A stretch of DNA of 55,113 nt from a virus (IMGVR_UViG_3300009593_000022:1-55113); one strand, 5' to 3'. Shown: positions 36,736 through 55,113, numbered from the stretch's first letter. Numbers and translations: made by a program. Notes: generated by a model from the sequence alone, not told the origin.

Positions 36736-37301
36736 CTACTTTCACAAAATGGCCAAGTCCCAGATGGGTTTTATGGGTTTCTAACAGAGAAGAAGACCGA
36801 CTACTTGATAGAACAAGTTCTATTGAGATTATCAAATGCAATGACTATGAAGAATATGTTCATGAAGTTATGCAATGCGATATGGGTTCACCTTCTTATT
36901 TGGAACTTGTCAACGACCCTAAGTGGGGCAACGGAAACGAAGAAATACTTATTCCAAAGATAGATGCGTCAAGTGAAGAGTGGGCTATCGCTCAAGCAAA
37001 GTCCATGACTGAACTTGAAGAGTTTCGTGTTTGGAAAGAAAACAACGGCGAACTGCCAGACAAGGCAATCGATACAAAGACTGAAAAGGTCGACTCAATC
37101 TCCTTAGAATATTTGGAAGAGAGAGTCGAGAAAGAGGACATATTCAAGATGAAACTTGATATGTTCGAAAAAGATTTTGTTCGAAATGCAAACAGGGAAC
37201 AGAAGTCCGAACTTAGGAAGACGGATGACTTCTTTCAGTTGTCGTCCATTTACTTCCAGATGAAGGCAGCGGCGGCTCACGCTGATAATGCACCATCTTG
37301 A
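36732..37301 (+). CDS. Hypothetical protein (189 aa), possible fibre assembly chaperone
   Basis: ATGA overlap with upstream gene. Charged helical protein ending IFKMKLDMFEKDFVRN...KSELRK. Last gene of the + strand module; the chaperone role is inferred from position only. Confidence 0.7.
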   Translation: MTTFTKWPSPRWVLWVSNREEDRLLDRTSSIEIIKCNDYEEYVHEVMQCDMGSPSYLELVNDPKWGNGNEEILIPKIDASSEEWAIAQAKSMTELEEFRVWKENNGELPDKAIDTKTEKVDSISLEYLEERVEKEDIFKMKLDMFEKDFVRNANREQKSELRKTDDFFQLSSIYFQMKAAAAHADNAPS

Positions 37302-37917
37302 TGTCTGGGTGAAACTCACCCATCCATAGATAGTCATTCTTATATCTTTCTGTCATCTTTGACATATAGGTATCGTCGCGTTCCATCTTCCATTGCGTAT
37401 GCCAATGGTCTGGGACAAACTTCATCTTCAAAGACTGAGATGTCCCTATCCTTCCCCTTACCATATCTTCAACAAAGTTCATTTCTCCGTTGACAGGACC
37501 AATAGTTATTCCTTGGTCGATATAGTAGGTTTGCCAAAATTCCGAATCTTGTCTAAAAGTTTCGTGAATATATTTCGTATCTTCTGGAAAAAATTTATAA
37601 AAACCTCCTGCAAATTTGTAAGTGCGTGCTGTGCCGTTATCTTGCCACCACCAATTTCGTGCAACAAGAAATTCACCTCGTTGAACAGGTTGTGAAAAAA
37701 GACTGGAATAATCGTTAAGGAACTCAATGTCAATGTCAATAAGGACCACAGGGCAGTCTTCTGATACGGAAAATGCTCGTAGCTTATTCCACTGAAGATG
37801 TATGCCAGGGTCCTCTTCACGAATCCATTCGATTGGTCCCAACTTGTTTTCAAGAGTACGTTCATAGTGAATGCCATATTTTTCTCCGATTCTTACAGCG
37901 TATATTTTGTAGTCCAT
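37213..37917 (-). CDS. GT-A fold glycosyltransferase-like protein
   Basis: N-terminal AVRIGEKY, WNKL, VVLIDIDI (DxD), GGFYKF, GEMNFV and C-terminal MVHY. Paralogous to the two GTs upstream in the operon. Confidence 0.75.
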   Translation of the reverse strand: MDYKIYAVRIGEKYGIHYERTLENKLGPIEWIREEDPGIHLQWNKLRAFSVSEDCPVVLIDIDIEFLNDYSSLFSQPVQRGEFLVARNWWWQDNGTARTYKFAGGFYKFFPEDTKYIHETFRQDSEFWQTYYIDQGITIGPVNGEMNFVEDMVRGRIGTSQSLKMKFVPDHWHTQWKMERDDTYMSKMTERYKNDYLWMGEFHPDIKMVHYQREPPLPSSGSKWTTTERSHPSS

Positions 37918-38414
37918 TCTGGTTTCTCTACATCATGATTTAATAAACATATTGGGTATGAGCGTATATTCTCATCCCAAAACCAAGACCAAGCAATTCT
38001 ATCATAGATTCTAAAATCTACTTCCCTATAAATGTATTCATCAATACCTCTTGTGTATTTGCTCCTATCCATTCCCAAGGATATATCTATTCTGTCACCC
38101 TTCCATGCCATGACTGATGAATTAAGTGGAGTATGATAGGGTTGTCTCCACCAAGCATACAACAAAGTAAAGTCATCTCTGACTACATCTATTGCATCTT
38201 TGATAACGACATCTAAATCGAAGTAGACGTAATTTTCGTCTTCTCTCCGACACTCCTGAAACATTTTCAGTTTATCGTAAACTGAGCCTTCTCCTCTTGT
38301 GATAACGTGAGTTCTGTCATATTTGAACTCAACGTTATGTAACTGATATTCAATGTCTGCAACTGCTTTGAGAGGATACTTGTCTCCAGTACAGACCATA
38401 ACTACAGTGGTCAT
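37893..38414 (-). CDS. Small GT-A fold (GT8-like) glycosyltransferase
   Basis: VCTGDKY, YDKLKMF, YFDLDVVI (DxD), LNSSVMAW and GIDEYI motifs. Confidence 0.8.
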   Translation of the reverse strand: MTTVVMVCTGDKYPLKAVADIEYQLHNVEFKYDRTHVITRGEGSVYDKLKMFQECRREDENYVYFDLDVVIKDAIDVVRDDFTLLYAWWRQPYHTPLNSSVMAWKGDRIDISLGMDRSKYTRGIDEYIYREVDFRIYDRIAWSWFWDENIRSYPICLLNHDVEKPEWTTKYTL

Positions 38415-38785
38415 GGCATTCTGAACAACGCGTTTACCCAGAGAGGTGGTTTAGAACGGGCAAAGACACACCAACCAAAGTATTCCTTGTCCTTAAAATT
38501 CGCTTCAACAAAATCGTGGAAACTTCCTCCAGTTGTAAGAACATCATCACAAATGAGATAAGGGTCATCTGCATTTTGTGTTGAATAGTCGTTCAACCAT
38601 CTTTCAAGTTTGTTTCCTCCTCTAGGTATTCCTATCGCGGCTTGAAACGGCCTGTCTTCATATTCTACAATCATTTTAGCTAGAGTCCACCATTCCGAAT
38701 CGCTAATAGCGTCACATTCTATTTTCCAGTTTAGTTGTTTTCCTGAGTGACCAATGAAATCAACACTTTGAAATAAGTCCATCAT
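38411..38785 (-). CDS. Minimal type I phosphoribosyltransferase (orotate-PRT-like)
   Basis: PRPP-binding loop LICDDVLTTGGS, GIPRGG loop and N-terminal FIGHSGKQLNWKIECD hood. Confidence 0.85.
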   Translation of the reverse strand: MMDLFQSVDFIGHSGKQLNWKIECDAISDSEWWTLAKMIVEYEDRPFQAAIGIPRGGNKLERWLNDYSTQNADDPYLICDDVLTTGGSFHDFVEANFKDKEYFGWCVFARSKPPLWVNALFRMP

Positions 38786-39207
38786 ATTCCTTCTATTCCA
38801 AGGTTATTACCATAAATATATGTATGCGTATCATCGTGATACTTGTCGTATAAATTGTACAACTTGTTTTGAGTTACCAGTTGTGCATGGTTGTGTATGG
38901 GGTTACAGTCGCCGTTATGTTCTTTAGCATCACCTCTGAGGATGAATTCTCCGTCATGAACTTGGCCAATAGGGAAGGTCTTTTCACAGTTCCAATGCAC
39001 GACACAACCACGAAGTTCTACCTCATCGAAGATAGCGTCCTTGCAGATAACATCATCTCTGTCTTTATATTTAATATCATAGTTGATATTGTGAACAACG
39101 ATGCCCAGCGAACGAAGCTGGTCAATTAAGTCGAAGTTTTCACACGCGACAAACGTTAGTTCATCGTGCTCAGTCAACCATGAATAAATCCGTTTCGTGG
39201 AGTTCAT
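38782..39207 (-). CDS. Hypothetical protein, degenerate class I methyltransferase-like paralogue of 42873-43643
   Basis: NYDIKY...KDAIFD...VVHWNCEK...HNGDCNPIHNHAQLVTQNKL aligns by eye with CYDKD...GDWFS...VIINTSGEH...GHTHCVSDMMELMRQQEL. Confidence 0.55.
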   Translation of the reverse strand: MNSTKRIYSWLTEHDELTFVACENFDLIDQLRSLGIVVHNINYDIKYKDRDDVICKDAIFDEVELRGCVVHWNCEKTFPIGQVHDGEFILRGDAKEHNGDCNPIHNHAQLVTQNKLYNLYDKYHDDTHTYIYGNNLGIEGI

Positions 39208-39862
39208 AGTGTTTTTTGTTTACAGAAATATTATTGTTGTAAAGATGAGAGGTATTAAATAGGGTCACTTTACCTCTTTGTCCATTTACATTATAATTAG
39301 AGAATAAACCCTCGCCCCAATAACTTAATCTATTATTACGGGCATGTTGGTAAAAAAGATACTTGTCGAGACTCTTATAAGTCCAAGCTATTTTTTCCCA
39401 ATTCTTTTCTGTATACTCACGAAGCCACGTCGCGCAACCTTTATCCCAAAAAACAAATGAACTATTGACATGACACGATGACCCTCTTCCATAGGGTTTC
39501 AAACTCATCGTTTCGAAGTCGTTCCAATAGTTCCAGATAAAGGTTATAGTTTTATGAGGCCGAGATACCAATTTCGTTATGTCTTCATTGATGTGGATAT
39601 CTAAATCCAACCATCCGTTTATCTCTGCTTCATCTTTGTCAATCAGCATCAGTTTTTCATACGTAAAGACCCTATCCGTGTCGTATGGTCTCAACTCTTG
39701 TATGTCACGATGCTCGATATCTTTTGTTAGTCCTTTCGTATCATCTGTCCAAACTCTCAGTATGAAGTCTGTGTTCAGATGTTTTCCTAGTAGTTTATAT
39801 AGACGATTAACATATTCAGCATTATATTTCTCCCCCCACTTCAGGGCATTTATGTGCACCAT
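39170..39862 (-). CDS. GT-A fold glycosyltransferase
   Basis: LKWGEKYNAEYVNRLY...WTDD, YEKLML, WLDLDIHI (DxD), VNSSFVFW and SLDKYL motifs. Confidence 0.82.
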   Translation of the reverse strand: MVHINALKWGEKYNAEYVNRLYKLLGKHLNTDFILRVWTDDTKGLTKDIEHRDIQELRPYDTDRVFTYEKLMLIDKDEAEINGWLDLDIHINEDITKLVSRPHKTITFIWNYWNDFETMSLKPYGRGSSCHVNSSFVFWDKGCATWLREYTEKNWEKIAWTYKSLDKYLFYQHARNNRLSYWGEGLFSNYNVNGQRGKVTLFNTSHLYNNNISVNKKHYELHETDLFMVD

Positions 39863-40959: not shown

Positions 40960-41999
40960 TGTGCGGTAAAAGGGTCATATCCATCATTGCATTTTAATGC
41001 GCAAGTTTCTAGTCTATCTACTCTAGACCAAGAATCTCTCACTTTAGTAAAGAAGTCGCCTTCAACTATCTCTTGAATACTCCGAACCTTCTTTACATTT
41101 ATCTTATCATAGTCACCAATCATGTTATGAACATCGCCTTCTTTTTCCTTACGCCACCATTTGTAAGGTTGTCCAGCCAACCAGCAACAAGGGAATACAT
41201 TCCCCTCTGATGATATATAGATTTCTGACTTATCTTCCGCTTTACATTTTATACTACATTTCTCCAAGTAGTTCTTAAAAGTTCCATGTTTCTCCTCTAA
41301 TTCCTTGAACTTGGGTAACTCTTTGTTCTGATACTTAGGATGAGTGGGCTGTTCAAGATACTGCTTTCTCTCCCCTTTCTTATTTATTGCTTGATGTCCT
41401 GTCTTGGTTTCAAGGGAAGCAGTATTTATGTATCGTCCACTTTTCTTTACGATGAACTCTTTTACTCCTAAAGCTCGTGCCCATCCTCGTGCAATGTCAA
41501 CTTGATGTTCGTTATGTTTGAAGACAAGGAAGGTCCACTTTGCCAGTCCGCCTGCATCACAGAAAGAAACGATATTGTCCTCGACCTTTTCCCATTTGAC
41601 ACCTTGACGATAGAGATGGTTGGTATCCTCTAGTCCATCAACGGAAAAGTTTACCTCACTAAACTGGGCAAGTTCTTCCCACCATTTCTGGTCTCTAGCA
41701 CCTCCGTTTGTTGTGGTCATTATTCTAAGTCGAGGATTCTTGTCCTTCATCCATTCGTAGATATGAAGAAGGTCATCACAGAAGATAGGGTCTCCGTGGT
41801 TACCACAGGAGTAGAAGAAATCTAATCTTTTTATGAATTCAAAATCGATAGAGTTGGTGAACTCTCGAAAGCTCCACGTTGCATTAGACAAATGATGGTT
41901 AACTTTACCTCCATTTTCGTTCCTGTCACACATTGGACAGGATGCATTACAACCTTGAGTTGGTTCGAAGTGAACCTGCTTTATGTTACGATACTCCAT
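40950..41999 (-). CDS. Radical SAM protein with C-terminal twitch domain (subfamily B)
   Basis: CNASCPMC, CGNHGDP, TTNGG and FSVDG motifs; C-terminal C...IYISSEGNVFPCC...CALKC. Confidence 0.92.
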   Translation of the reverse strand: MEYRNIKQVHFEPTQGCNASCPMCDRNENGGKVNHHLSNATWSFREFTNSIDFEFIKRLDFFYSCGNHGDPIFCDDLLHIYEWMKDKNPRLRIMTTTNGGARDQKWWEELAQFSEVNFSVDGLEDTNHLYRQGVKWEKVEDNIVSFCDAGGLAKWTFLVFKHNEHQVDIARGWARALGVKEFIVKKSGRYINTASLETKTGHQAINKKGERKQYLEQPTHPKYQNKELPKFKELEEKHGTFKNYLEKCSIKCKAEDKSEIYISSEGNVFPCCWLAGQPYKWWRKEKEGDVHNMIGDYDKINVKKVRSIQEIVEGDFFTKVRDSWSRVDRLETCALKCNDGYDPFTAQWQ

Positions 42000-42892
42000 A
42001 TGTCTTTTGGGTAGTCCATGATTTCTTTAGTGCCTGGCGTCCACAAAGGAGTAACAGTCAGGTCTATGTCGATGTAATTTCTAAACTGTTTTATAAACTG
42101 TTTAACTTGAGGCACTTTTTCTGGGTGTAACATGCATTTGAGTCGAACTGTCTTTTTGCCTTTACCACTTCCTCTGGCGTCAAGGAATCGTTTAAGTTTT
42201 TGTATGTAAGTATCCCGAACAAATTCAAAGTGAATAGAAATAGCGAGGTGACTATAAACATTGAGATGATTGAGATACTCAGCCGACTTGGTTCCATTAG
42301 TGCTCGTAGAAATTTGTGAATAAGGATTATTCCCTTTCAACCACTTGACAAAGTCAATGTAGTTTTTGTTTAATGTTGGTTCTCCACCACTTATATTTAT
42401 GGTGCGCACATTTCGGGGGTTTACTGTCCTCCAAGCTTGTTTATATTTTTCTATATCTATTGACTCTGTCGAGGAATGGTTTTCAGGTTCACAGTATGAA
42501 CATTCAAAGTTACATTTCTTTTCTGTGTAGAAGTTAACATTGACTTTGTTCTCGTTGTCAATGGCTCGTATCTTCTGTCCCTGTTTGTATGGTTCTATTT
42601 TGGCAGGTGCGTGTTTGATGAGTTTGAGTAGGTCTTCATTTGCTCCTTTTCTCATTTCAATATCATTACCACAGAAACAATTGTCATTCGGACATATTTG
42701 ACTTTTGATGGGAGTGAAGTCATCAATACTTTGTTCTTCAGGACTTCCGCAGACTGTCTGTCTGACTGTCCATTTTTCTACATCTATGACATACTGGGAT
42801 GGTTCACAAATCCAACCCTTAAAATTAGTTACCTGTTTTAGTTGACTGACTGTAGCAGTCTTCATCCCTTGGTCAGTCAGTACCTTCAGCAT
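41981..42892 (-). CDS. Radical SAM protein with N-terminal (swapped) twitch-like domain (subfamily C)
   Basis: CNFECSYC, SGGEPT, STNG and SIH motifs; N-terminal FKGWIC...C...CPNDNCFC..D. ATG 42892 chosen for its GGAGG RBS. Confidence 0.9.
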   Translation of the reverse strand: MLKVLTDQGMKTATVSQLKQVTNFKGWICEPSQYVIDVEKWTVRQTVCGSPEEQSIDDFTPIKSQICPNDNCFCGNDIEMRKGANEDLLKLIKHAPAKIEPYKQGQKIRAIDNENKVNVNFYTEKKCNFECSYCEPENHSSTESIDIEKYKQAWRTVNPRNVRTINISGGEPTLNKNYIDFVKWLKGNNPYSQISTSTNGTKSAEYLNHLNVYSHLAISIHFEFVRDTYIQKLKRFLDARGSGKGKKTVRLKCMLHPEKVPQVKQFIKQFRNYIDIDLTVTPLWTPGTKEIMDYPKDIWSIVT

Positions 42893-43643
42893 GCATCCTC
42901 CCAATCACCATAAACCTATTATAAGTTTGCATAGACCTAGTACCTGTGTAATAAGTCTTGCCCAGTTCTTGTTGACGCATCAGTTCCATCATATCTGAAA
43001 CACAATGAGTGTGTCCGTTTCCATCAAAATAATCATTTGACATAACGATAGTAAGAGGGTTTCCCTTAAAGAAGTTTCTTCTTTGGGATATGTGTGGCAT
43101 ATGTTCACCAGAGGTATTTATAATAACATGCCGTCTTCTGACATCAGACCTGCTGAACCAGTCTCCGAATTGATGCACAGGATATTTAGGTTCGAACTTA
43201 TTTTTATATTGAGCCATGACTGGATGGCAGAGTTCGTCTTTGTCGTAACAGTCTATCTGTTTTATGTTTGGAAAGGCGTAGTCGATATATTCTATCAACG
43301 GCCAACCAAACCAAGAACCAACTAACTCAATGTGACAGGGTCTTGTATAGTCAAACTTAGAACCGAGATTTGCTATCTCTTCAACCATCCATAGTTTAGA
43401 TTCGTGTTGTTGAGATGAAAGGGAGTCTGCGTGTGACTGGACATATGCTTCTGAGAGGTTGTTTTCAATCCATCTTCCAACTTCTGAATACTTTGTCGCT
43501 CTCTGAATCTTGTTGACTGTCGCTTGTTCTTCTCGCATTTTTGAGAGAAGAGCCTCGTTTCGCCGATAGTCAATTATCTCCAGTACAGTTCTCTTTTCTT
43601 CATCTTTACCTTTGTGAAGTAATCGTTGAAGTTCTGATTCCAT
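42873..43643 (-). CDS. Class I SAM-dependent methyltransferase-like protein
   Basis: SKLW, motif-I-like ELVGSWFG, acidic CYDKD, VIINTSGEHM, SNDY and terminal RFMVIG strand. Start uncertain. Confidence 0.7.
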   Translation of the reverse strand: MESELQRLLHKGKDEEKRTVLEIIDYRRNEALLSKMREEQATVNKIQRATKYSEVGRWIENNLSEAYVQSHADSLSSQQHESKLWMVEEIANLGSKFDYTRPCHIELVGSWFGWPLIEYIDYAFPNIKQIDCYDKDELCHPVMAQYKNKFEPKYPVHQFGDWFSRSDVRRRHVIINTSGEHMPHISQRRNFFKGNPLTIVMSNDYFDGNGHTHCVSDMMELMRQQELGKTYYTGTRSMQTYNRFMVIGRMHAEGTD

Positions 43644-44782
43644 ATTTTGTCTGTCTCTTCTATGTATAAAAGAAATGAGTTGTAATGTCTGTAGGGAACA
43701 TCTGCCTTGTTGACATAGTCCTCAATATAAGCGACCCACCATTCGGCGTCTGTTCCTGCAACTAACATTTTGGTTTTATTTATCTCTTCCTGAATCTCCT
43801 CACGAAAGTCATGCATGATGAGTGAAGGGTCAAGATAAAGGGGTGACTGGACTATTGATGCATCGTATCCATCAACATCCAATTCTAAAAAGGACTCCCA
43901 GATATTGTAGAAGTCCATCATCTGATAAATCGAAGTCGTGCAAGTAGGTTGTATTTCTATTCTCCCACCCATCTGTTTCATTTCGTCAATATTCCATTTC
44001 ATCTTCTCCCAGTCTCCTTGACGAAAGTATCCATAGATATTCTTTCCAGCATCAAGTGAAACTGTTATTGTAGACTTCTTAAACGGCAACAGTCTTTTAT
44101 GTAGTTCGAATACTGAGAAGTCTGTATTGAAATTTGTGTGAAATGATAAGTGTATGTTTTTAGAGTTGGGATGTTTCGCCAGTAGTTCTAGACAAGGATA
44201 GAATTGTTTCTGTATCGTTACCTCTCCTCCAGCAAAGTCAACCATTTCAAGATTCGGGAAGTTCTCGTTGAGGTCTTCCACTATCAACTTAACTTCGCTC
44301 ATCGGCATCTGCATCTTGTACTGGTCGAACGCTCCATTTCGATGCATCTGTTTTGTCAACTGTATCAGTTGATGACCACGAACTTCATAAGTTGGTTCGT
44401 ATCCTTCAAGTCTTTTGGTCCATCCAGATGAGTAAACATCAGAACAATGAAGACAAGACATATTACATGCGTTGGAAAATCTAAGTTCTACATGCCGTAG
44501 GTTCTCAAAGGGAGAAAACCCTTTTTCGTGTTCTCCAGCCAAGACATGGTCGAACCTCATAGAAGGATGACCAATACTTTCTGAATGTTCACAAAGGTCA
44601 CAACCAGTCGGCCATCTTCCCGCGTCAAGCTCGGTCCTAACCCATTTAAACCCTAGGCTATTGAATATTTTTGAAGGGATACCGACTTCAGCCAGTTGGT
44701 CTGACTGACGCGGACAAACGGAGACAGTTCCGTTCTTGTAGTTGATACCGCTATTGGCATAGAAGCATTTTATTTGTACCAT
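43574..44782 (-). CDS. Radical SAM protein with N-terminal SPASM-like domain (subfamily A)
   Basis: N-terminal CFY...VC...GCDLC; SNACNMSCLHC...SSGW, FAGGE, HTN and VSLD motifs. Confidence 0.92.
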   Translation of the reverse strand: MVQIKCFYANSGINYKNGTVSVCPRQSDQLAEVGIPSKIFNSLGFKWVRTELDAGRWPTGCDLCEHSESIGHPSMRFDHVLAGEHEKGFSPFENLRHVELRFSNACNMSCLHCSDVYSSGWTKRLEGYEPTYEVRGHQLIQLTKQMHRNGAFDQYKMQMPMSEVKLIVEDLNENFPNLEMVDFAGGEVTIQKQFYPCLELLAKHPNSKNIHLSFHTNFNTDFSVFELHKRLLPFKKSTITVSLDAGKNIYGYFRQGDWEKMKWNIDEMKQMGGRIEIQPTCTTSIYQMMDFYNIWESFLELDVDGYDASIVQSPLYLDPSLIMHDFREEIQEEINKTKMLVAGTDAEWWVAYIEDYVNKADVPYRHYNSFLLYIEETDKIWNQNFNDYFTKVKMKKRELYWR

Positions 44783-46191
44783 TCAAGCCACTCAAGGTCT
44801 GGAAAAGTTTGAATGAAGTTCAAGTTTCTATTTTCAGAAACACCGAAACACCATTCTGCCGTTTCTGGCAGTCTTTCACTCCAGTCTTCACTATTCATAA
44901 ACGAGACAAGACCTTTTAGTCTTTTAACTCCATACGGAAGTTCTAACCATTCTTCTTTGGTACAGTTCCCCTCTGCCATTCTATCCCAGTTTTCTTCTAA
45001 CCACGGATAGAAGTTTTCGAACTTTTCCTCCACTTCCATCTTGAACCACTTAGGTAAAGCTTTGATGTTTAACTGAGGTGGCCAGTAGGCTAAGTGAAGG
45101 TCTATCATCCCTGCTCCAGCAGGGAACTTGTTCAGTAACTTCCAGTCTTGATTTATTTTCCAACCGATAAAGTCTGGAAGGTAATAGAGATTTAATAGAG
45201 TAATGCAGCAAGCAGTAGTAAGCCGAAGGTTACCATGAGGGTAATTATCCAACTCCCTAAGTTGGCGTTGGACCTTTCTCCACGGAGATGGCCAGCGGAT
45301 AAAATGATTAATGTCTCCATAGGAGTCGATGGAGAAATGAAATATAACCTGCTTGAACTTTGACCAGAGCTCGAATAGGTGAGGTTCCCAGTCAAGTCCA
45401 TTGCTATTGTATCTAAGTTCGATTTGTGACGCATATCCCGACTCGATGATTTCAGCCAAGACATCATAATGTTCCTTCATTATTAGAGATTCACCACCAG
45501 CCCAGTAAAGTTGTTTTAGGTATGGATACTGAGTTCGTAGTTCGTCAAAGAATAAGGGGTTCTTTTTATGCCATGCGTAGGAGCCCCCAGACCACGCTAG
45601 TTTACCTGAGTCCTTCTCCCATTCCATAGAGGACTGCAGTCTGGAATTATTTAGTCTGGGATAAATGTCTCTGTATTCTTTAACCCAAGACGAAGAGTCG
45701 TGAGGAGAACACATCACACAGGCAAGTTGGCATTTAGAACCTAAACGAAGGTCAACATACCTCACCCGTGGTGGTACTTCCCCAGTCTGATAGTCGTAGT
45801 TTATCAGTATTTCGTCAAGACCTATTTCATCAACCCACTTCGCAGTTTCCCATTGTCGTTTGGAACGATGACCTGCGTCCTCTTCTTTGTAGCACTTGAT
45901 ACAAGAATCTGGTTTCTCACCCGCCATCATTTGTTTTCGGACATTCTTCATGTACGAGGCGTTCCAAGCTTCAAGCATAGGAGTATGAGCAAGGTTAGCT
46001 GGTTTCCCATCTTCCTTTCTCATGACTCCCGCTTCCGAGACTGTCTTCTTAGTTGAGTCTTTGTCCTGAACTCCAGATGCATTTGCCGTACAACAAGTTC
46101 TCATGTGTCCGTTTGGACGCGTAGAAACGTGCATCCATGGCAATGCACAGAAGGTAGGACTTGGAGTTACTGGGTCTTTATCAATATTCAC
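44770..46191 (-). CDS. Radical SAM protein with N-terminal SPASM-like domain (subfamily A)
   Basis: FCALPWMH...GHMRTCC...CIKC; CQLACVMC..HDSSSW, WAGGE, YNSNG and FSID motifs. GTG 46191 overlapping the upstream stop preferred over ORF start 46263. Confidence 0.92.
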   Translation of the reverse strand: MNIDKDPVTPSPTFCALPWMHVSTRPNGHMRTCCTANASGVQDKDSTKKTVSEAGVMRKEDGKPANLAHTPMLEAWNASYMKNVRKQMMAGEKPDSCIKCYKEEDAGHRSKRQWETAKWVDEIGLDEILINYDYQTGEVPPRVRYVDLRLGSKCQLACVMCSPHDSSSWVKEYRDIYPRLNNSRLQSSMEWEKDSGKLAWSGGSYAWHKKNPLFFDELRTQYPYLKQLYWAGGESLIMKEHYDVLAEIIESGYASQIELRYNSNGLDWEPHLFELWSKFKQVIFHFSIDSYGDINHFIRWPSPWRKVQRQLRELDNYPHGNLRLTTACCITLLNLYYLPDFIGWKINQDWKLLNKFPAGAGMIDLHLAYWPPQLNIKALPKWFKMEVEEKFENFYPWLEENWDRMAEGNCTKEEWLELPYGVKRLKGLVSFMNSEDWSERLPETAEWCFGVSENRNLNFIQTFPDLEWLEWYK

Positions 46192-46987
46192 CGAAAGCCC
46201 ACTCTCTTTCCCAACACCACCAACATTTTTCACAACCTTTGGTGTAGTTATCAGTATCATCAATATGTCCTTCGCAAGAACGAGTCATGCGAAACAAGTC
46301 CATGCATCCAAGGTCTTTGTACATCTTAGCGATAAAGCTTTTATCGCCACCAAAATAAGGATTGATGTATGTCCTCATCGGGGTACACATTTTAGTTGGT
46401 CTCTCAGCATTTTCATCCCTAGTTGGCTCAGTATGTTGTGCGAGCCATTCAGGTTTCTTCTCCATCTCAGATAGAGGCGGAGCGGCAGTGATACCAGAGA
46501 ACAAAACTTGTATCTTATTCTTAGAAAAGTTCTCATGGTCTTTGTCTAAGAATTCTTGGATGTTGGTTTGATGCTCGTCTTCTATCGCTGGCCAGTATGT
46601 TTCATGAGGTTCAAACTGGTAGTTCAGTCTGTTCTCAATTTCCTCAATGACATTTGCCGCATACATCCAGTTCCAGTTACGAGGACTTCTCCGTACTGAC
46701 ATCGGTTGTATCTTGTAAGGATGACCTTTGTCAATAACAGTACGAGCTAGGTTGTACAGAAGAATAGTCGAGTCAGCACCTCCAGATGCCCAGACTCCGA
46801 TAGTTTCTACATCGATTTCTTCACAGGCTTCATCCCAGTTGTTGTAGGGGGGAAGTTTTATCTGTCTCAGTATTTCGTCTGGGGGATGTTGGTACAAAGA
46901 CTTGGCGTATTCTTCTTTGTATCTAATAACTCTTTTTGGGATACGAAGGTAGTAGTTATCGTACCATTCTTGTTCGTATGTATTCAT
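46181..46987 (-). CDS. PP-loop ATP pyrophosphatase, QueC (7-cyano-7-deazaguanine synthase)-like
   Basis: SGGADS PP-loop, NPYFGGDKSFIA and C-terminal TRSC...CEKCWWCWER Zn-binding motif. ATG 46987 preferred over 47026. Confidence 0.8.
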   Translation of the reverse strand: MNTYEQEWYDNYYLRIPKRVIRYKEEYAKSLYQHPPDEILRQIKLPPYNNWDEACEEIDVETIGVWASGGADSTILLYNLARTVIDKGHPYKIQPMSVRRSPRNWNWMYAANVIEEIENRLNYQFEPHETYWPAIEDEHQTNIQEFLDKDHENFSKNKIQVLFSGITAAPPLSEMEKKPEWLAQHTEPTRDENAERPTKMCTPMRTYINPYFGGDKSFIAKMYKDLGCMDLFRMTRSCEGHIDDTDNYTKGCEKCWWCWEREWAFGEY

Positions 46988-46997
46988 TCGGATATAG

Positions 46998-47990
46998 TCA
47001 TAACAAAGGTGTGTCTTCAAACTCATCGTGGTTCCCTTGGGCGCAAGTCTTCACGCATCTGTCAAAAGGGTTATCATTCCAAGACTCTATTATACCATGA
47101 TAATAGTCAGAGTCAAGTATATTTTTTATTTCTCTTTTGTGTATGTTAATAGAATCTTTTCCCTCAGTTTCCCAGAAAAGTCTGTAGGAATTGTCGTTAC
47201 CCTCTCGCCCGTAAATAAGTTTGAGTGTGTCAGAATTGAGGTGACAGCAGGGGATGAGATATCCTCTATGGTTAAGGAAAAGTCGTTTGGACTGAAGGTA
47301 TCGGCAGGATACGGCATTTGGTGATAGGGAGTTGTTGGATTCAAAGGGTAGTCCTGACATATCACTATGTTTGGGTTCGTCTGAACCTCCCTTGCGCACC
47401 TCCCCACTTCTATCACGATGCGACCAGATGAGGCGAAATCCCGCAAACCCCGAACTAATACTCTCCCTTTTAGCGGCCTCAATTTGATGCTCGTTGAAGT
47501 CGAATGCGATGTACTGCCATACGGCCTTACCTCCCGCATAGATGAAGGCTCGGGAGTTGTTTCTAACAAGTTCCCAGTCGCTTCCGATTCGATATTGTTC
47601 ACTGGTTGAGCCCACACCATCAATGCCAAAGTGTATATGATGAGGCTTAGTAGAGAGAAGTGAACCAAGTTTCCTCCAAAATGGTGGCATCCTTACGGAA
47701 CCACTTGTTGCTATGTTTAGATGGCACCCCAAGTCAGTCGCCCATTCAGCGATTTCAAATATTTGCGGATGTGCGATAGGTTCGTCTATCGATCCACAAA
47801 AATTAATAATTTTTAGATTAGGGAGTGCTTCTCGTGTTATACGCTTTTTGAGAAGGTCAAGGTCTAGCTTTTCTTTGTTCAGGTGAGGTTTTATCCATTC
47901 ACCTTGCTGTCTCAGACAGCCTGGACATTTAAGTCCGCAATATGATGTGACTTCAATATCAAGCCACTCTACCATAGAGGAGTTCCACAT
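46998..47990 (-). CDS. Radical SAM protein with C-terminal twitch domain (subfamily B)
   Basis: CGLKCPGC, CGSIDEP and FGIDG motifs; C-terminal CRY...GYLIPCC...CVKTC. Start could be 47999, 47990 or 47975. Confidence 0.92.
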   Translation of the reverse strand: MWNSSMVEWLDIEVTSYCGLKCPGCLRQQGEWIKPHLNKEKLDLDLLKKRITREALPNLKIINFCGSIDEPIAHPQIFEIAEWATDLGCHLNIATSGSVRMPPFWRKLGSLLSTKPHHIHFGIDGVGSTSEQYRIGSDWELVRNNSRAFIYAGGKAVWQYIAFDFNEHQIEAAKRESISSGFAGFRLIWSHRDRSGEVRKGGSDEPKHSDMSGLPFESNNSLSPNAVSCRYLQSKRLFLNHRGYLIPCCHLNSDTLKLIYGREGNDNSYRLFWETEGKDSINIHKREIKNILDSDYYHGIIESWNDNPFDRCVKTCAQGNHDEFEDTPLL

Positions 47991-48969
47991 AATCATCAAG
48001 TAAGGGGGGATACCCAGTTAAGTTACTCATTAGTCGCTCAAAGAGGTCGCCTCTGAACTTGTCTTCCATGCAGTATTTAGAAAGGGCATCTTCCATCAAT
48101 GGATTCTGCGATATTATATATTGTTTGACATCCACAGGTAAGTATTGAAGGTTTAACCATTTGGGACCAAGTAGATAGTCAGTTGACCAATGCTCAGAAT
48201 TAAAATCAAACTGTTCTATCGTCTGTTCAAAGAAGGGAGCGTTAATGGTATGAAAGACGAAGTGCGGTTTAGCATCGAACTCGTAACGGAAACGATTCAT
48301 GTTTCTTTCGATACGACTCCACTTGGTTCCTTCTCTTATGTATTCAGCAAGTTCTCCATATCCATCAATACTGACAGAGATAACCAGATTCTTAAACTCA
48401 TTGAGAAGTTTACGAACATAGTCGTTAGGCCAGATAGAACCATTTGTCACCAACCAGAGTTCGATATTGTGTCTGGGTACTGACTCCATTATCGCTATGT
48501 TTCTCTTGTCGAGGAATGGTTCACCTCCAAGAAGTTTCAGTCTGTCAAGATTTTCATAGAGGGCTGGGTTGGGTAGTTCGTTGTCTATCGTGTCACCAAA
48601 CTGGTTTGAGAACCTATCGTTGCAGGTAACACATTTCATGTTGCATCTGTTACTCGTTGAAATTTCTAAGTAACGGAGACCAAGAGGGGCGTCTGGATAC
48701 CAACCAGAAAACTGTTGCCGATAGGATACGACATTCTTTTTGTATAGACTATTTTTAGCAGAATGTTTTTCGTCTAGTTTGCATTTCTCACAACCTTCAA
48801 CTTCATATCCTTTCTCCATGTCTGAACGAATGAGATTCATTTCATCAGAAAGAAAAGCTTCTTCTATGTTTTTATATTTTCCTTCCAGAGGATACTTGAA
48901 CATACAACAAGGACGAAACTCTCCATTGGGATTTTGAACCATATGGGTCCAAGGTGCACTACACTTCAT
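47959..48969 (-). CDS. Radical SAM protein with N-terminal SPASM-like domain (subfamily A)
   Basis: CSAPWTH...GEFRPCC...CEKC; SNRCNMKCVTC, GGEP, VTNG and SIDG motifs. Confidence 0.92.
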   Translation of the reverse strand: MKCSAPWTHMVQNPNGEFRPCCMFKYPLEGKYKNIEEAFLSDEMNLIRSDMEKGYEVEGCEKCKLDEKHSAKNSLYKKNVVSYRQQFSGWYPDAPLGLRYLEISTSNRCNMKCVTCNDRFSNQFGDTIDNELPNPALYENLDRLKLLGGEPFLDKRNIAIMESVPRHNIELWLVTNGSIWPNDYVRKLLNEFKNLVISVSIDGYGELAEYIREGTKWSRIERNMNRFRYEFDAKPHFVFHTINAPFFEQTIEQFDFNSEHWSTDYLLGPKWLNLQYLPVDVKQYIISQNPLMEDALSKYCMEDKFRGDLFERLMSNLTGYPPLLDDYVELLYGRVA

Positions 48970-49426
48970 ATTCTGTATAAATGTTTTCTAAGGAGTTTCT
49001 AGGTATCCAACCCATTGAGTCTATGTCTATCAGATATGGTTTTCCATTCCAGATACGAATGTTGTCCATCTTGAGGTCAGTATGCATGAATACCTTTTCT
49101 TTTCCTTCACTAAACTCAATACAGTCTGGGATGACTTTCAACGAAATCAGTTTTATGGTCTTGTTGATAAGGCGAGAGTTCTTTTCGTCAATGAGTACAG
49201 GCGGGAACTGTTCTCCTCCAATATGGTCGTATTCTAAGGTCAGATAGTTATCTGTCCATTCTCCATTATGATTCCATGTATAATCATGCAATGTAGGAAG
49301 ATATTCTTGCCCGTATATTTTACGAAAGCTCATATACGAAATGGGGTCGAAACGAAAGTCGTCATCGTATTTTACAGTCTTGACCCATCGGTCTCCGACT
49401 CTAGTCATGTTCACAGTTTCTATCAT
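48959..49426 (-). CDS. Minimal protein-kinase-like (APH/Kdo/RIO-type) phosphotransferase
   Basis: Catalytic loop HTDLKMDNI, Mg-binding LIDIDS, VKTVK lysine and LEYDHIGG hinge in only 155 aa. Confidence 0.78.
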   Translation of the reverse strand: MIETVNMTRVGDRWVKTVKYDDDFRFDPISYMSFRKIYGQEYLPTLHDYTWNHNGEWTDNYLTLEYDHIGGEQFPPVLIDEKNSRLINKTIKLISLKVIPDCIEFSEGKEKVFMHTDLKMDNIRIWNGKPYLIDIDSMGWIPRNSLENIYTEYEV

Positions 49427-50385
49427 TCTATAATCTTTCTTACCTCCCTTTTTCCGTTGTCACCACAGGTTAGGTAACATCTGGGTAGGTGTAATGGATG
49501 GTTCTTATTCCAAGATTTTTCTAAAGTCTCAGTATACCACGGGTCAGAGAGTATGTCAAGTAGACCTCTGTTTTTCAAGGAAAAGTCTACATTCAGTTTT
49601 TCAATATAATGTTTAGTGTAGGAGCCGACTGACTCATCGTGGATATGACAACAAGGAAAAACTTTCCCAGTTGCAGTTATGAAGATTTCGTCTTTCTCTT
49701 TGTGTCTACATCGGATATCGGGCTTGTCGTAGTTACCTCTATACGCCCTGCTCTGTACATCTTCATACTTTTCTGTGTCGATGGACTTTGCTGTTTCTGA
49801 CCCGAACTTAACATGATCAGCATTGTTCCTCCAGCTTTCTCGTGTTGCGAAAGATAGTCCCGCTTTTCTGGCGAGAGTTCTTGCTTCATCGACTTCATGT
49901 CTATTGTAATCGAACTTGATGAATTGCCATATTCCTTTACCTCCGTTGTCGGTGTAGGACTTGACATTTCCCAAGACCTTATCCAATGATACGCCTTCTC
50001 TATAGTCATTCCTAGTCGCTCCATCAATGCTCCAATGGACATTCATTCTCCCTTCTGACATTTTTGACATCAAACCCATTTCTGCCCACCACTTGGTTGT
50101 CCTCAAACCTCCGTTTGTGGATATCTCCAAGTCTCTTATCTTTTTTTCGAATAGGAAGAACCAAAGTATTTCGTAGAGTTCTGGGTTAGCGATAGGGTCG
50201 CCTAAAACTCCACAAGCTTTTATTTTGGTGTCTGTGAGGTCAACATCGGAGAACCATTCTTCACAGTTCTCCAAAGTGATATTCGTCTTTTCGTAAAAGA
50301 CCTTTTCATTATCTAACATTGTTCTCTTACAACCACTGCAACGGGCGTTGCAATGGGAAGACAACTCAACTTCTATTATTCTCAA
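49423..50385 (-). CDS. Radical SAM protein with C-terminal twitch domain (subfamily B)
   Basis: CNARCSGC, CGVLGDP, STNGG and WSIDG motifs; C-terminal CRH...IFITATGKVFPCC...CYLTC. Confidence 0.92.
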   Translation of the reverse strand: MRIIEVELSSHCNARCSGCKRTMLDNEKVFYEKTNITLENCEEWFSDVDLTDTKIKACGVLGDPIANPELYEILWFFLFEKKIRDLEISTNGGLRTTKWWAEMGLMSKMSEGRMNVHWSIDGATRNDYREGVSLDKVLGNVKSYTDNGGKGIWQFIKFDYNRHEVDEARTLARKAGLSFATRESWRNNADHVKFGSETAKSIDTEKYEDVQSRAYRGNYDKPDIRCRHKEKDEIFITATGKVFPCCHIHDESVGSYTKHYIEKLNVDFSLKNRGLLDILSDPWYTETLEKSWNKNHPLHLPRCYLTCGDNGKREVRKIIE

Positions 50386-52812: not shown

Positions 52813-53582
52813 AGTTCTCCAATCTTTTCCTGTTCACTTTTCGGTGCTGATCTCCAGTAACGAATAGATTCTGTGATAGCATCCAAAGCTTTCTCTTCAT
52901 ACTCCTCATCCCATCCCAAATAGATTTTGAGTCGGAGTTTCAGGTTCTCCTCAGATACTCCAAGTATGTCTTGGTTTCCAAGGTCTAGAATATGTTTAGG
53001 GAGTACGTTTGTGTAGTCCATCCAATACTTAGTATGCAGTTCGACAAACTTTATCTCTCCCTGTTTGATCACGTGAAACCCTTTTGGAGTTTTCGACTGA
53101 CCAATGTCATACGCCCAGGCTGAACCAAATCGACTTTCCCTCCTATTGTGAAAGTGACCACAAAAGACTCCTCGTTCTTCAGACGCATGAGCAAACCTGT
53201 ACTTGATCTCTTGGTCCTCTGTGAAGAGAGTATGAAATGCCTTCCCAAATCCTTCAGCAGGTAGGAACTGACATTCGTCCATTACTGTGTTCACAGAAAT
53301 AGAAATGACTTTTGGATGAAAGTCTGTGAAAGATCCGTCCATTCCATAGTCATGGTTTCCAGCCAGCATGTAAACTCTCTCGTCTTGAATCTCCTCAAAG
53401 AAGGCATAGTTCTTCCTATCAGCAGACTGAAAGACATCGCCCATGTGAACGATAGTCTTTATGTTTCGCTTTCTGATGTTCTTGAAGAACTCTTTTGTTA
53501 GTCTGTTCTTCTCCTCTTCAGGGAAAGACGGACTGTCATAGTGTGTGTCAGAAATTACTGCAAACTTTTCAAAATGGAACAT
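52785..53582 (-). CDS. Calcineurin-like metallophosphoesterase, T4 gp47/SbcD-like
   Basis: SDTH, HMGDVF, GNHD, AH and GHFH motifs followed by FGS...KGFHV as in gp47-family proteins. Confidence 0.85.
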   Translation of the reverse strand: MFHFEKFAVISDTHYDSPSFPEEEKNRLTKEFFKNIRKRNIKTIVHMGDVFQSADRKNYAFFEEIQDERVYMLAGNHDYGMDGSFTDFHPKVISISVNTVMDECQFLPAEGFGKAFHTLFTEDQEIKYRFAHASEERGVFCGHFHNRRESRFGSAWAYDIGQSKTPKGFHVIKQGEIKFVELHTKYWMDYTNVLPKHILDLGNQDILGVSEENLKLRLKIYLGWDEEYEEKALDAITESIRYWRSAPKSEQEKIGELWKEMKSTN

Positions 53583-54619
53583 ATCTCCTCGTTTGGGAAC
53601 TCGTTATTGAGTAAAATGTCCATGTGTTTCATAGCCTCTAAAGCGCCTGTCTGAGGTTCTTCAGGAAACATTATGGTGTTATTTATGTGCTCATCATCTG
53701 TCAACCATCGTTGACGATACTCCAAAGGTATTTGAGTATGTCTTAGATAGTCTGGAACAAACAAGGGGTAAACCTTAGTAGGATATCCCAAGTCCAAAAC
53801 TTGTTGAATATGATTAACGTTCATGACAGAGAGAGTGCAGTTAATACTAACAGGTCCCTGTTCTTCCCATCGTTTCATATTCTCTTTAACCTTCTTCCAC
53901 TTAGCAGGATATCTCATAGACTCAAAGAGGTCTCCTGTCGCGTCAATAGAAAGTTCGATGTTAACAGACTTAAACTCTGGTAAAGAGTATAACACAGTTC
54001 CATTCGTATTACAAGAGAAATCTATCTGTTTTGTAGGAATATTATCAAAAAACCAGTCGATGTTCTTGGCGAGAAATGGTTCTCCTCCAGAAAGTCTGAC
54101 TCTGGTAAGATGAGAGAGGTCTGTATTTTCTAAGACTCTCTTCATCGCTACTGCGTAGTTTCCAGTTCCTATGTCGTTATAATGGTCTTTGTCAAACTTT
54201 TGTAAACCTGAGACATCCAACCTGTCCCAACGTGAAGAAATGCCTGGCCGACAAGAACGACAAGACAAATTACAATGATAGTCCAAACCAATATGAAGTC
54301 TCTGCAACTTCTTAGCTTTGGTAAGCTGTTTGTTGAGTCTTCCGCGAGTCGATTGTGGTTGTCCATCTTTAGCTAAGTCTTTTTTAAGAAATTCTAGTTT
54401 CTGACATTGGTTACATTCCTGTGGCCATTGTCCTTCCGCAAACTGGTCTTCCATTTGGAAGTAGAGATAGGACGAATTGATATTGTCCAGAGTTGCGATA
54501 TTGTGAATGTTTAGTTCGTCCCATCGAGTGGTATGTGCCATATCCGTAATACAACACGGAACTGCTATTCCCCTGTTATTGGTAATGGCGACTGAGCCGT
54601 TGATTGCTCTGCACTCCAA
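53555..54619 (-). CDS. Radical SAM protein with N-terminal SPASM-like domain (subfamily A)
   Basis: CRA...GIAVPCC...CNQC; CNLSCRSC...SSRW, SGGEP, NTNG and LSID motifs. GGAGG RBS. Confidence 0.92.
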   Translation of the reverse strand: MECRAINGSVAITNNRGIAVPCCITDMAHTTRWDELNIHNIATLDNINSSYLYFQMEDQFAEGQWPQECNQCQKLEFLKKDLAKDGQPQSTRGRLNKQLTKAKKLQRLHIGLDYHCNLSCRSCRPGISSRWDRLDVSGLQKFDKDHYNDIGTGNYAVAMKRVLENTDLSHLTRVRLSGGEPFLAKNIDWFFDNIPTKQIDFSCNTNGTVLYSLPEFKSVNIELSIDATGDLFESMRYPAKWKKVKENMKRWEEQGPVSINCTLSVMNVNHIQQVLDLGYPTKVYPLFVPDYLRHTQIPLEYRQRWLTDDEHINNTIMFPEEPQTGALEAMKHMDILLNNEFPNEEICSILKSLQ

Positions 54620-55113
54620 TATGCCTCCTTTGTCAGAAAATGTTCATGGTCACCTGCCTTGACCACTTCTGGGGTAAGTCCATCCATCCATTTTCCCATC
54701 AAAGGTTCTACTGGTCCATCTGTCTTGTCGATACAGAGACCACAACCACAATGGGTTTTTGGACAGGTTACGATTGGGAGCTTTTTTTCGTAGAGTTTTT
54801 CGGCGAGACGATCAACAATTTCTCCAAATCGACTGGCAAAGCCAAGTGGCTTAACTTCTCCGTCCAAGTTAACTCCACAGGTTTGATGAGACCATACCCT
54901 ATCAAACTCACTATTGATAAAGAGGAAATAATAATTAACCCAGCATCGAAACCCAATAAAGTTGTTACTGGAAACGTAATTGCAAGAAGAACCATCCATC
55001 GAGAAAGTTCTTCCTCCACAGCAGGGCCTGCCCAAGGACTTGTTGCGTTCTCCAAAATGGTCTTTGAAGTATTGCTGTTGTTCAGTATTGTATTCATGTG
55101 TATACCCAAATAA
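54565..55113 (-). CDS. C-terminal Cys-rich twitch/SPASM-like part of a probable radical SAM protein (subfamily C), truncated by the window edge
   Basis: Frame is open from 55113. GRPCCGG, NNFIGFRC...HQTC...CPKTHCGCGLC matches the auxiliary domain of 39850 and 41981. The CxxxCxxC motif itself is not in the window. Confidence 0.72.
   Translation of the reverse strand, partial: LFGYTHEYNTEQQQYFKDHFGERNKSLGRPCCGGRTFSMDGSSCNYVSSNNFIGFRCWVNYYFLFINSEFDRVWSHQTCGVNLDGEVKPLGFASRFGEIVDRLAEKLYEKKLPIVTCPKTHCGCGLCIDKTDGPVEPLMGKWMDGLTPEVVKAGDHEHFLTKEAYWSAEQSTAQSPLPITGE

Follow-up and report, generated by a model that had tools for sequence, protein, structure and literature searches.

An array of radical SAM genes beside the tail-fibre genes of a marine T4-like phage, and its possible role in sugar tailoring

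A co-oriented block of radical SAM and accessory genes

The DNA analysed here, in its full length of 55,113 bases (hereafter, the window), comes from one virus entry of IMG/VR (IMGVR_UViG_3300009593_000022; CheckV completeness 27%) and belongs to a marine T4-like phage (see below). Next to its tail-fibre genes, positions 37213-55113 hold a block of 21 minus-strand open reading frames (ORFs), g1 to g21, all co-oriented, which include eleven genes for radical S-adenosylmethionine (SAM) enzymes, one of them incomplete. The reading that we favour, with a confidence somewhat short of even, is that the block is an island for the cytoplasmic tailoring and transfer of sugars or nucleotide-sugars, built from shuffled cassettes. 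It is prompted by the enzyme class, by the sugar genes that accompany related genes in Bdellovibrionota and in the flanks of related phage arrays, by the presence of a GT8-like candidate glycosyltransferase (g5) and by proteins that look soluble; moreover, no characterized equivalog from a cofactor pathway or from a pathway to ribosomally synthesized and post-translationally modified peptides (RiPPs) appears to fit the ten complete enzymes. What was observed is which genes the block holds, to which enzyme classes they belong, how often such arrays recur and which genes surround them.

An earlier note on this DNA, made from the sequence alone, had described an array of co-oriented and almost all overlapping genes, ten with a CxxxCxxC motif and an eleventh cut by the edge. 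That description holds: if each ORF is given its greatest length, an overlap of 4-83 nt is found at 20 of 20 junctions, although the real start codons may be more internal, and the motif is present in 10 of the 21 minus-strand ORFs, as against none of the 11 plus-strand ORFs (12,329 residues in total). The edge-cut product, g21, aligns with the C-terminal half of a family of 375-435 residues (F6), at 33-51% identity, and the motif is found in 22 of 22 homologues of the same family. The genes are listed below; NF033640 is the NCBIfam model for twitch domain-containing radical SAM proteins (N_Twi_rSAM), a subfamily model without an assigned reaction.

54565..55113, minus: g21, 3' part of a radical SAM gene, family F6, 182 residues, cut by the window edge
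53555..54619, minus: g20, radical SAM, N-terminal twitch-like domain; CxxxCxxC at residue 116; NF033640 152.5 bits
52785..53582, minus: g19, calcineurin-like metallophosphoesterase; Metallophos_2 45.5 bits (cut-off 27), Metallophos 41.3 bits
51544..52812, minus: g18, N-terminal-twitch radical SAM, NF033640 member; NF033640 213.4 bits, PF04055 36.7 bits
50382..51551, minus: g17, acidic protein of 389 residues; no Pfam, PHROG or NCBIfam match
49423..50385, minus: g16, radical SAM, C-terminal twitch-like domain, family F0; CxxxCxxC at residue 12; SPASM Pfam 22.9 bits
48959..49426, minus: g15, small protein with a weak kinase-like catalytic-loop motif; sole match NCBIfam CotS, E 0.0053, residues 108-139
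47959..48969, minus: g14, N-terminal-twitch radical SAM, NF033640 member; NF033640 196.6 bits; SPASM Pfam 22.5 bits, residues 3-64
46998..47999, minus: g13, radical SAM, C-terminal twitch-like domain, family F0; CxxxCxxC at residue 21
46181..47026, minus: g12, PP-loop ATP-pyrophosphatase-like, QueC-like C-terminus, family F5; SGGxDS by eye and weak profiles
44770..46263, minus: g11, N-terminal-twitch radical SAM, family F1, most widespread core member; NF033640 375.7 bits
43574..44782, minus: g10, N-terminal-twitch radical SAM, NF033640 member; NF033640 201.2 bits
42873..43643, minus: g9, member of the F20/F2 accessory family; aligns with F2; no Pfam or PHROG match
41981..42904, minus: g8, radical SAM of family F30, N-terminal extension rich in Cys; PF04055 41.1 bits, Fer4_12 35.2 bits
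40950..41999, minus: g7, radical SAM, C-terminal twitch-like domain, family F0, core member; PF04055 33 bits, SPASM 21.2 bits
39850..40959, minus: g6, radical SAM of family F8, closest of the core members to Bdellovibrionota proteins; PF04055 47.1 bits
39170..39862, minus: g5, candidate glycosyltransferase, GT8-like (GT-A, DxD); D86 and D88 invariant in the family
38782..39207, minus: g4, short protein, possible relative of the C-terminal half of the F2/g9 family; hhalign 50%, E 1.6e-4
38411..38785, minus: g3, protein of 124 residues, phosphoribosyl pyrophosphate-binding-like motif by eye only; no Pfam, PHROG or NCBIfam match
37893..38414, minus: g2, paralogue-like relative of g5, candidate GT-A; hhalign 92.5%, E 5e-7
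37213..37917, minus: g1, DxD protein weakly related to g5; hhalign 25.7%

None of the 21 proteins has a stretch resembling a transmembrane segment (the highest 19-residue Kyte-Doolittle mean is 1.28); all look soluble, and the chemistry is therefore presumably cytoplasmic. The T4 late-promoter word TATAAATA was matched once, against 1.63 expected, and neither sigma-70-like sites (45 against 43.1 expected) nor terminator-like sites (12 against 13.1) were in excess over shuffled sequence; the single operon of the earlier note is thus a putative one.

A diversified set of apparently twitch-type enzymes

The Pfam model PF04055 scored above its 29.5-bit cut-off in five of the ten motif-bearing proteins (g6, g7, g8, g10 and g18), while four more gave sub-threshold scores of 22-27.7 bits; g20 had no Pfam match at E<=0.01 yet gave 152.5 bits with NF033640. 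The cut-off of this model is 170 bits: g10, g11, g14 and g18 belong to the family (197-376 bits, near the full model length), g20 falls below the cut-off, and the six other radical SAM genes lie elsewhere. Literature searches under the family name found no paper on NF033640. The earlier note had also assigned SPASM-type auxiliary cysteines to the enzymes. Auxiliary Cys sets are indeed present, in a conserved pattern of C-x17-18-CC plus CxxC or CxxxC (in g16, for example, C226..C245C246..C303xxxC307 near the C-terminus), and are twitch-like; the full SPASM domain, with two auxiliary clusters, has a seven-Cys motif that includes CX2CX5CX3C, an element absent from every ORF of the block, and that part of the claim falls. 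Five proteins gave borderline scores of 17.3-22.9 bits with the Pfam SPASM model, and two of them reach its cut-off of 21.5 (g14, 22.5 bits; g16, 22.9 bits). Because the C-x17-18-CC and CxxC/CxxxC elements are present and CX2CX5CX3C is absent, the pattern suggests twitch-type enzymes with a single auxiliary cluster, N-terminal in five and C-terminal in three.

The N-terminal arrangement, C..CC..CxxC, is kept in g10, g11, g14, g18 and g20 (C3..C22C23..C69xxC72 in g20), with a single C at the CC position in g10. In g7, g13 and g16, an auxiliary Cys domain of this type is found at the other end, the C-terminus; within the block this looks like a domain permutation. In g8, Cys residues at 33, 52, 71, 76 and 78 lie upstream of the CxxxCxxC at 131. 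The three proteins with the C-terminal domain are paralogous to one another, at 25-28% identity and E values from 1e-28 to 1e-34 (27% and 2e-34 for g13 and g16), and across the block paralogue identity is only 20-28%. The set is therefore probably old and diversified, and a recent tandem duplication of one radical SAM gene is ruled out by the same figures, which fit distinct specificities rather than gene dosage.

Characterized equivalogs matched the ten enzymes poorly in NCBIfam: MoaA, PqqE, NirJ, anSME, AlbA, BlsE, QueE and viperin gave 15-58 bits against cut-offs of 180-850, and the best match of g13, TIGR04317, reached 57.7 bits against 380. A tight clustering with a cofactor pathway such as MoaA, NirJ or PqqE, which the earlier note had named as something that would refute its reading, was not seen (at most 58 bits, against 231-650). 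Small molecules, either sugar-like or nucleotides, are the substrates of BtrN and MoaA, two characterized twitch enzymes whose auxiliary domain is C-terminal. Like enzymes of the BtrN type, those of the window have one auxiliary Cys cluster, are short and have no peptide-recognition domain; they differ in giving no significant match to any solved member and, in five of them, in the N-terminal position of the auxiliary domain.

Accessory and transferase-like genes

The phosphoesterase named in the earlier note is g19 (45.5 bits with Metallophos_2), the sole gene outside the radical SAM set to have firm support from a hidden Markov model (HMM), so that its prediction as a metallophosphoesterase is made firmly. 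For g12, called a PP-loop enzyme in the same note, the label is a putative one, drawn from an SGGxDS motif seen by eye, a QueC Pfam score below cut-off (E 0.0037) and a match to the QueC-like phrog_1550 (5.8e-6); its family, F5, is present in 24 loci.

Three DxD glycosyltransferases had been proposed as well. Of these, g5 yields GT8-like leads and g2 is related to it, but no direct HMM match was obtained and the relation of g1 is weak. The family of g5 comprises 1552 representative clusters at E<=0.001, and its DxD (D86, D88) is invariant across 108 homologues. Among the PDB matches of the family profile, 23 of 25 are GT8 enzymes aligned at the DxD, all of them sub-threshold (E >=0.07); a profile of nine sequences gave no PDB match. 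Atlas neighbours of g5 carry the names NDP-sugar transferase (NDP, nucleoside diphosphate) or GT8. The hhalign comparison of g2 with g5 (92.5%, E 5e-7) spans the DLD and NSS motifs, and that of g1 with g5 gave 25.7%. A tblastn search of deposited phages with g5 and g6 returned zero matches.

The remaining genes offer leads. In the alignment of g9 with the widespread accessory family F2, the W, E-H, N, H and R positions do not vary, and g4 (hhalign 50% and E 1.6e-4 against F2; no Pfam, PHROG or NCBIfam match) may be a short relative of the same F2/g9 family. Methyltransf_31 accounts for 21% of one Atlas neighbour cluster of this family, so that a methyltransferase label is a lead only; a PDB profile search with the family gave just non-significant thioredoxin and spermidine-synthase matches, and that with family F3 gave no match. 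The labels that the earlier note had attached to g3 (phosphoribosyltransferase, PRTase), g15 (kinase) and g4 and g9 (methyltransferase) keep motifs or leads in their favour (CotS at E 0.005 for the kinase; the 21% share of Methyltransf_31) but no firm HMM, and are weak predictions from by-eye motifs or weak profiles. Counterparts of g3, g15, g17 and g19 were found in none of the 80 related viral loci described below. With no family match and no homologue in those loci, g17 stands as an orphan cassette within the array.

Related arrays are widespread in viral loci

Relatives of g11 number 2657 proteins at E<=1e-5 in a large protein collection and 135 in viral contigs, from which 80 loci were kept for a census. 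CxxxCxxC ORFs have a median of 7 per locus; for the 39 loci that are 18 kb or longer, the median is 9 (about 40% of the ORFs) and the range 4-15. The two dominant families are F1 (the g11 type; 123 members from 81 sources) and F0 (the type of g7, g13 and g16; 133 members in 65 loci). The genes vary between loci in both order and identity, as expected for cassettes. In two related genomes, both 100% complete by CheckV, PF04055 is matched 16 and 15 times, with most of the matches concentrated in a single island, and a related fragment of 243 kb has 23.

The genes g1, g2, g4 and g5 form a glycosyltransferase-like module of their own. Their homologues, and those of a 322-residue ORF on the fibre side of the block (35767-36735), occur in the identical 8 loci, and in both mapped loci, L020 and L032, the module is oriented away from the g11-type gene. 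Because the module travels with the 322-residue ORF and points away from g11 in those loci, we take the window block to be two modules joined in one orientation.

In the flanks of the viral arrays we found genes for a carbamoyltransferase, a cytidylyltransferase-like protein, UDP-glucose dehydrogenase, DegT, aminotransferases and a nitroreductase, and further for NifU, Nfu, FeS_assembly_P, an iron permease, ClpP and ClpS. Some arrays have ClpP, ClpS, FeS_assembly_P (DUF59-type), NifU/Nfu and FTR1 iron permease genes within 10 kb (L044:2814-8061, L054:1792-4662, L061:5837-6439). The proximity of Fe-S genes fits a phage that provides Fe-S clusters to its own radical SAM enzymes, as put forward by Nishimura et al. 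(2017).

Two families of the related loci, F17 and F7, are absent from the window. The amidinotransferase-like family F17 is found in 11 related viral loci. A 74-residue ORF without Cys, F7, is conserved in L035 (1742-1966) and 17 other loci; in L066, the one locus mapped, it sits between F2 and a radical SAM gene, and it is not obviously a precursor peptide. A further family, F40, of 160 residues and situated inside some arrays (L017:6815-7297 and homologues), resembles, by eye, a nucleoside phosphorylase or nucleosidase and has no Pfam match; an enzyme of this type could clear the radical SAM by-product 5'-deoxyadenosine.

A core shared with Bdellovibrionota, among sugar genes

In a prokaryote survey of one genome per species, relatives of g11 were found in 73 loci, 54 of them with Bdellovibrionota-type labels (Bdellovibrionales, Bdellovibrionia, Bdellovibrio, Bacteriovoracaceae, Halobacteriovoraceae and Pseudobdellovibrionaceae were counted). 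Among these are a Bdellovibrio in culture and complete chromosomes, and identity to g11 is about 50%. Genes of the g11, g7 and g6 types occur together in 40 of these 54 loci, often with F2 and F3; the g6 type is present in 44, g6 having 54-60% identity to Bdellovibrionota proteins, and g7 has 37-39% identity to the Bdellovibrionota neighbours of g11 homologues. Matches to NF033640 above its cut-off number 7, 7 and 11 in three Bdellovibrionota genomes and are found in none of 14 control genomes. Part of these NF033640 genes lies in islands at 1858-1894 kb of G001:C1 and 2131-2156 kb of G003:C2 (L154-L157, L093), and the accessory families F2, F13, F17 and F19 are common to Bdellovibrionota islands and phage arrays.

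Two radical SAM islands of Bdellovibrionota, with 46 ORFs, hold two UDP-glucose/GDP-mannose dehydrogenases, two NAD epimerase/GDP-mannose dehydratases, two GT2 and one GT1 glycosyltransferases, a DegT aminotransferase and a polysaccharide lyase. At the locus of cultured Bdellovibrio, L093, four of ten scanned neighbours are GT2 and one is GNAT, and GT2 is the commonest family (11 members) among 134 non-radical-SAM ORFs of 12 long loci. The core of g6-, g7- and g11-type genes that phage and Bdellovibrionota have in common, set amid GT2 and nucleotide-sugar genes, is what is new here; a literature search on the point found no paper, functional or otherwise, on islands of radical SAM and glycosyltransferase genes in Bdellovibrio.

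In a tree of g11 relatives (midpoint-rooted FastTree with identical sequences removed and no clade test, from which no donor is drawn), 66 viral sequences, the window and 12 sequences labelled as metagenome-assembled genomes (MAGs) form one clade within a Bdellovibrionota grade. Ten of the 19 loci with other taxon labels fall inside this viral clade, several with 8-13 motif ORFs, and most of the 19 look like phage contigs binned into MAGs. Loci L081-L084, L088, L101, L106 and L112, inside the viral clade and with 4-13 radical SAM-motif ORFs each, carry the MAG labels Chloroflexota, Acidimicrobiaceae, Verrucomicrobiales, Rickettsiales, Gammaproteobacteria, Crocinitomicaceae, Neisseriaceae and Planctomycetota; these are likely to be mis-binned phage contigs.

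A proposed pathway and its alternatives

The pathway we propose would operate from a hypervariable region beside the fibre genes. Each of the eleven deeply diverged, putatively twitch-type enzymes would use SAM and the [4Fe-4S] cluster of its CxxxCxxC motif to abstract a hydrogen atom from an intermediate (a sugar, a nucleotide-sugar or something sugar-like) and so make one radical edit to it, be it an epimerization, an oxidation, a deoxygenation or a step of C-C chemistry, with the single auxiliary cluster handling the electron. Polar chemistry would come from the phosphoesterase and the PP-loop enzyme, from the proteins that resemble a kinase and a PRTase, and from the g9/g4 family, and the GT8-like DxD proteins (g5, g2 and perhaps g1) would move the product onto an acceptor, for which a virion protein, a host envelope precursor or another soluble molecule are candidates. 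Substrate class, individual reactions and acceptor are deduced from the company that the genes keep. Virion proteins, the target that the earlier note thought most plausible, are a possible one only, in keeping with where the block lies and with its soluble enzymes. Virion proteins are glycosylated by phage-encoded glycosyltransferases in some mycobacteriophages, where, as in the window, soluble glycosyltransferase-like proteins are encoded next to structural genes; to our knowledge, that system has no radical SAM component. The tailoring line for a modified sugar or glycan that the earlier note had envisaged is thus retained as the favoured reading, with twitch-like enzymes in the place of full SPASM ones and on circumstantial grounds of gene company, to which the distantly related module of a cultured phage, Campylobacter phage CP220, contributes an amidinotransferase and NDP-sugar-transferase-like genes beside radical SAM genes.

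Several observations weigh against sugar tailoring. Many SPASM and twitch relatives act on peptides, and the only solved structure matched by the profile of the g11 family is the peptide-modifying SkfB (E 1e-3). The window has, by Pfam, no recognizable nucleotidyltransferase, sugar dehydratase or aminotransferase, and the substrates of its enzymes are themselves predictions. Neither g5 nor g1 and g2 match Pfam or PHROG, and Pfam GT8 (PF01501) is matched by only 3 of the 108 g5 homologues, at a best E of 2.4e-4, so that the family of g5 is assigned weakly as a candidate glycosyltransferase of GT8-like type. No classical glycosyltransferase family appears in the top list of the viral flank census. 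The enrichment of GT2 in bacteria is moderate, with 4 of the 11 members (among 134 ORFs) from one locus, and a bacterial neighbourhood at about 50% identity need not apply to the phage.

The alternative that survives best, though we consider it unlikely, is the maturation of proteins or peptides, in which the radical SAM enzymes would introduce crosslinks, epimerizations and the like into a phage protein (fibre or baseplate) or a host protein, in the manner of anSME and of sactipeptide and ranthipeptide maturases. Most of the weak NCBIfam matches are indeed peptide maturases (CefB, StsB, PapB, WgkB, AlbA) or maturases of uncertain substrate, the sole PDB match was noted above, the block adjoins huge structural genes, and three families of Asp/Asn beta-hydroxylases, which modify proteins, occur in the flanks of related arrays. 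However, the named peptide maturases score at most 31 bits against cut-offs of 340-850, the full SPASM motif is lacking, and the Pfam scan at E<=0.01 revealed no domain of the PqqD or RiPP recognition element (RRE) type. Moreover, the overlapping genes leave no space for a small precursor ORF, and none lies between them (a precursor elsewhere is possible), and the conserved company is one of sugar-nucleotide and glycosyltransferase genes, not peptidases or exporters.

Rather improbable, in our view, is a diffusible small molecule, an aminoglycoside-like or nucleoside-like metabolite made during infection and acting on competitors or the host. All window proteins look soluble, and related arrays hold genes for amidinotransferase-like proteins, carbamoyltransferase, aminotransferases, nitroreductase, halogenase and aldo-keto reductase; a cyanomyovirus paper reports ORFs 305, 309 and 306, for an AHBA-synthase-family protein (AHBA, 3-amino-5-hydroxybenzoic acid), an inosamine amidinotransferase and a radical SAM maturase, as antibiotic-synthesis genes. 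Yet no exporter or self-resistance gene was recognized in the window with Pfam and PHROG, the GT-A-like transferases and the fibre-side position better suit attachment to a macromolecule, and a lytic phage would gain from a diffusible product for a short time only.

Hypermodification of DNA or nucleotides, with the PP-loop (QueC-like), PRTase-like, kinase-like, phosphoesterase and radical SAM enzymes making a protective modified base, has the QueC-like g12 to commend it, together with the reported use of radical SAM enzymes in thymidine hypermodification pathways and with the Campylobacter phage CP220, which swaps all G for 7-amido-7-deazaguanine and has a QueD gene about 6 kb from its radical SAM module; it is the least probable of the three, as tRNA-guanine transglycosylase (TGT)/DpdA (PF01702) is found in none of five related phage records, two of them 100% complete by CheckV (divergent DpdA3 types could be missed), PTPS/QueD-like genes are in two of the five and far from the arrays, QueE models give at most 20.5 bits against cut-offs of 206-260 for all enzymes, only the QueC-like C-terminus of the 7-deazaguanine set is present (FolE was not searched for), at least ten radical SAM genes far exceed any known base pathway, and the company in Bdellovibrionota is of the glycan type.

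To return to sugar tailoring, a bolder form of it, to which we give little credence, is that T4-like ocean phages and the predatory Bdellovibrionota have a common combinatorial toolkit for the radical editing of glycans, with arrays of 5-15 or more twitch radical SAM genes, each for a different edit of a sugar, shuffled as cassettes, and that in the phages a hypervariable glycan is put on fibre or baseplate proteins of the virion by soluble GT8-like transferases. If so, variation in host range or decoys would have, on top of the fibre sequence, a further layer that is chemical, and both the way in which the glycan is made and the way in which phage surfaces diversify would be of a new type. 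The sugar editing of the favoured reading would in itself, if true, mean that the arrays hold much new and unexploited radical chemistry of carbohydrates. Oxygen harms radical SAM enzymes, and their demand for iron makes them expensive. Abundant surface-ocean phages nevertheless spend about 10% of a genome of about 170-200 kb on such arrays, which in relatives lie near Fe-S assembly genes; because of this outlay, the product presumably matters for infection. New handles on it are the twitch classification, the core shared with Bdellovibrionota among sugar genes and the culturable systems Bdellovibrio and CP220, and the soluble enzyme set as defined is suited to in-vitro reconstitution.

Comparison with described phage arrays

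Arrays of this kind are already in print, in 2010, 2017 and 2020, each without an assigned function in the literature searched. The earlier note had rightly allowed for similar uncharacterized arrays, but the novelty it implied was overstated, since T4-like modules rich in radical SAM genes have been published. Timms et al. (2010; PMC2853527) count 11 and 12 radical SAM proteins in the Campylobacter phages CP220 and CPt10 and describe an interchangeable module of five of them with a glycine amidinotransferase, termed highly unusual, for which a metabolic benefit was proposed only. No functional study of the amidinotransferase/radical SAM modules of Campylobacter phages was found in the literature from 2011 on. 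According to two further reports, the marine T4-like genome TARA_ERS488813_N000010 (183 kb) has 12 radical SAM genes and Fe-S assembly genes (Nishimura et al., 2017; PMC5332604), and pelagimyophages carry radical SAM cassettes in a hypervariable host-recognition island between structural genes, with fibres and glycosyltransferases (Zaragoza-Solas et al., 2020; PMC7029224). The phages of both reports, which mention these genes in passing, are like the window by description in being marine, T4-like and radical SAM-bearing; in addition, the loci related to the window resemble TARA_ERS488813_N000010 in having Fe-S assembly genes nearby.

In the CP220 record, gp080, gp081, gp083, gp084 and gp087 are radical SAM proteins, gp086 is the amidinotransferase and gp088 and gp089 are noted as NDP-sugar transferases; there is also a PAP2 phosphatase, and the module comes directly after the baseplate lysozyme and PAAR genes. 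The likeness to the window thus lies in a T4-like myovirus with a radical SAM cluster and NDP-sugar-transferase-like genes right after baseplate genes, and extends to single proteins: gp080, gp083 and gp084 have 23-29% identity to g13, g16 and g7, gp081 matches the family of g21 (F6) and gp086 matches the marine family F17 (E 1.7e-25). Of the traits of the CP220-type module, the window has the radical SAM cluster, the glycosyltransferase-like genes and the position, and lacks the amidinotransferase F17. The CP220 module is also smaller, host and habitat differ, and CP220 has no match of the g11 type, with its N-terminal twitch domain; tblastn with g11 found only 5 other phage records. A megablast search of deposited phages with the whole block gave zero matches.

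Structural genes and the origin of the window

The window is a fragment of a real marine T4-like phage and no chimera, because the same DNA is found again in marine metagenomes from several studies and because, when the block is divided into 30 bins, contigs from four marine runs match 29-30 of them at >=90% likeness, a coverage that speaks to its recurrence as DNA only. An assembly chimera is ruled out, as independent runs cover the block. The window contains no tRNA genes and no tandem repeats. Its plus strand, which codes up to 37301, carries T4-type baseplate wedge proteins by PHROG:

7475-7870, plus: baseplate wedge protein (PHROG match, phrog_261)
7870-9735, plus: baseplate wedge protein (PHROG match, phrog_219)
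9735-21032 and 22962-29234, plus: giant structural ORFs of 3765 and 2090 residues, between baseplate wedge genes
21097-22917, plus: baseplate wedge protein (PHROG match, phrog_438)
29234..35767, plus: fibre-like structural genes of 1081 and 1092 residues, which the block adjoins (phrog_677, phrog_9729 and phrog_6005 matches)
35767..37301, plus: two ORFs of 322 and 189 residues without an assigned family, between fibre genes and block; no PHROG match

The PHROG labels are baseplate wedge tail fibre connector for phrog_677, tail fibre for phrog_9729 and virion structural for phrog_6005. These matches bear out the earlier statement that the block abuts tail-fibre genes, with two ORFs (35767-37301) in between. 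The gp6-like protein is nearest to that of the Pelagibacter phage HTVC008M (38.7%), followed by the Methylophilales phage Melnitz and cyanomyoviruses. The ORFs of 3765 and 2090 residues are probably candidates for VrlC-like proteins, a landmark of the host-recognition cluster in the pelagimyophage paper.

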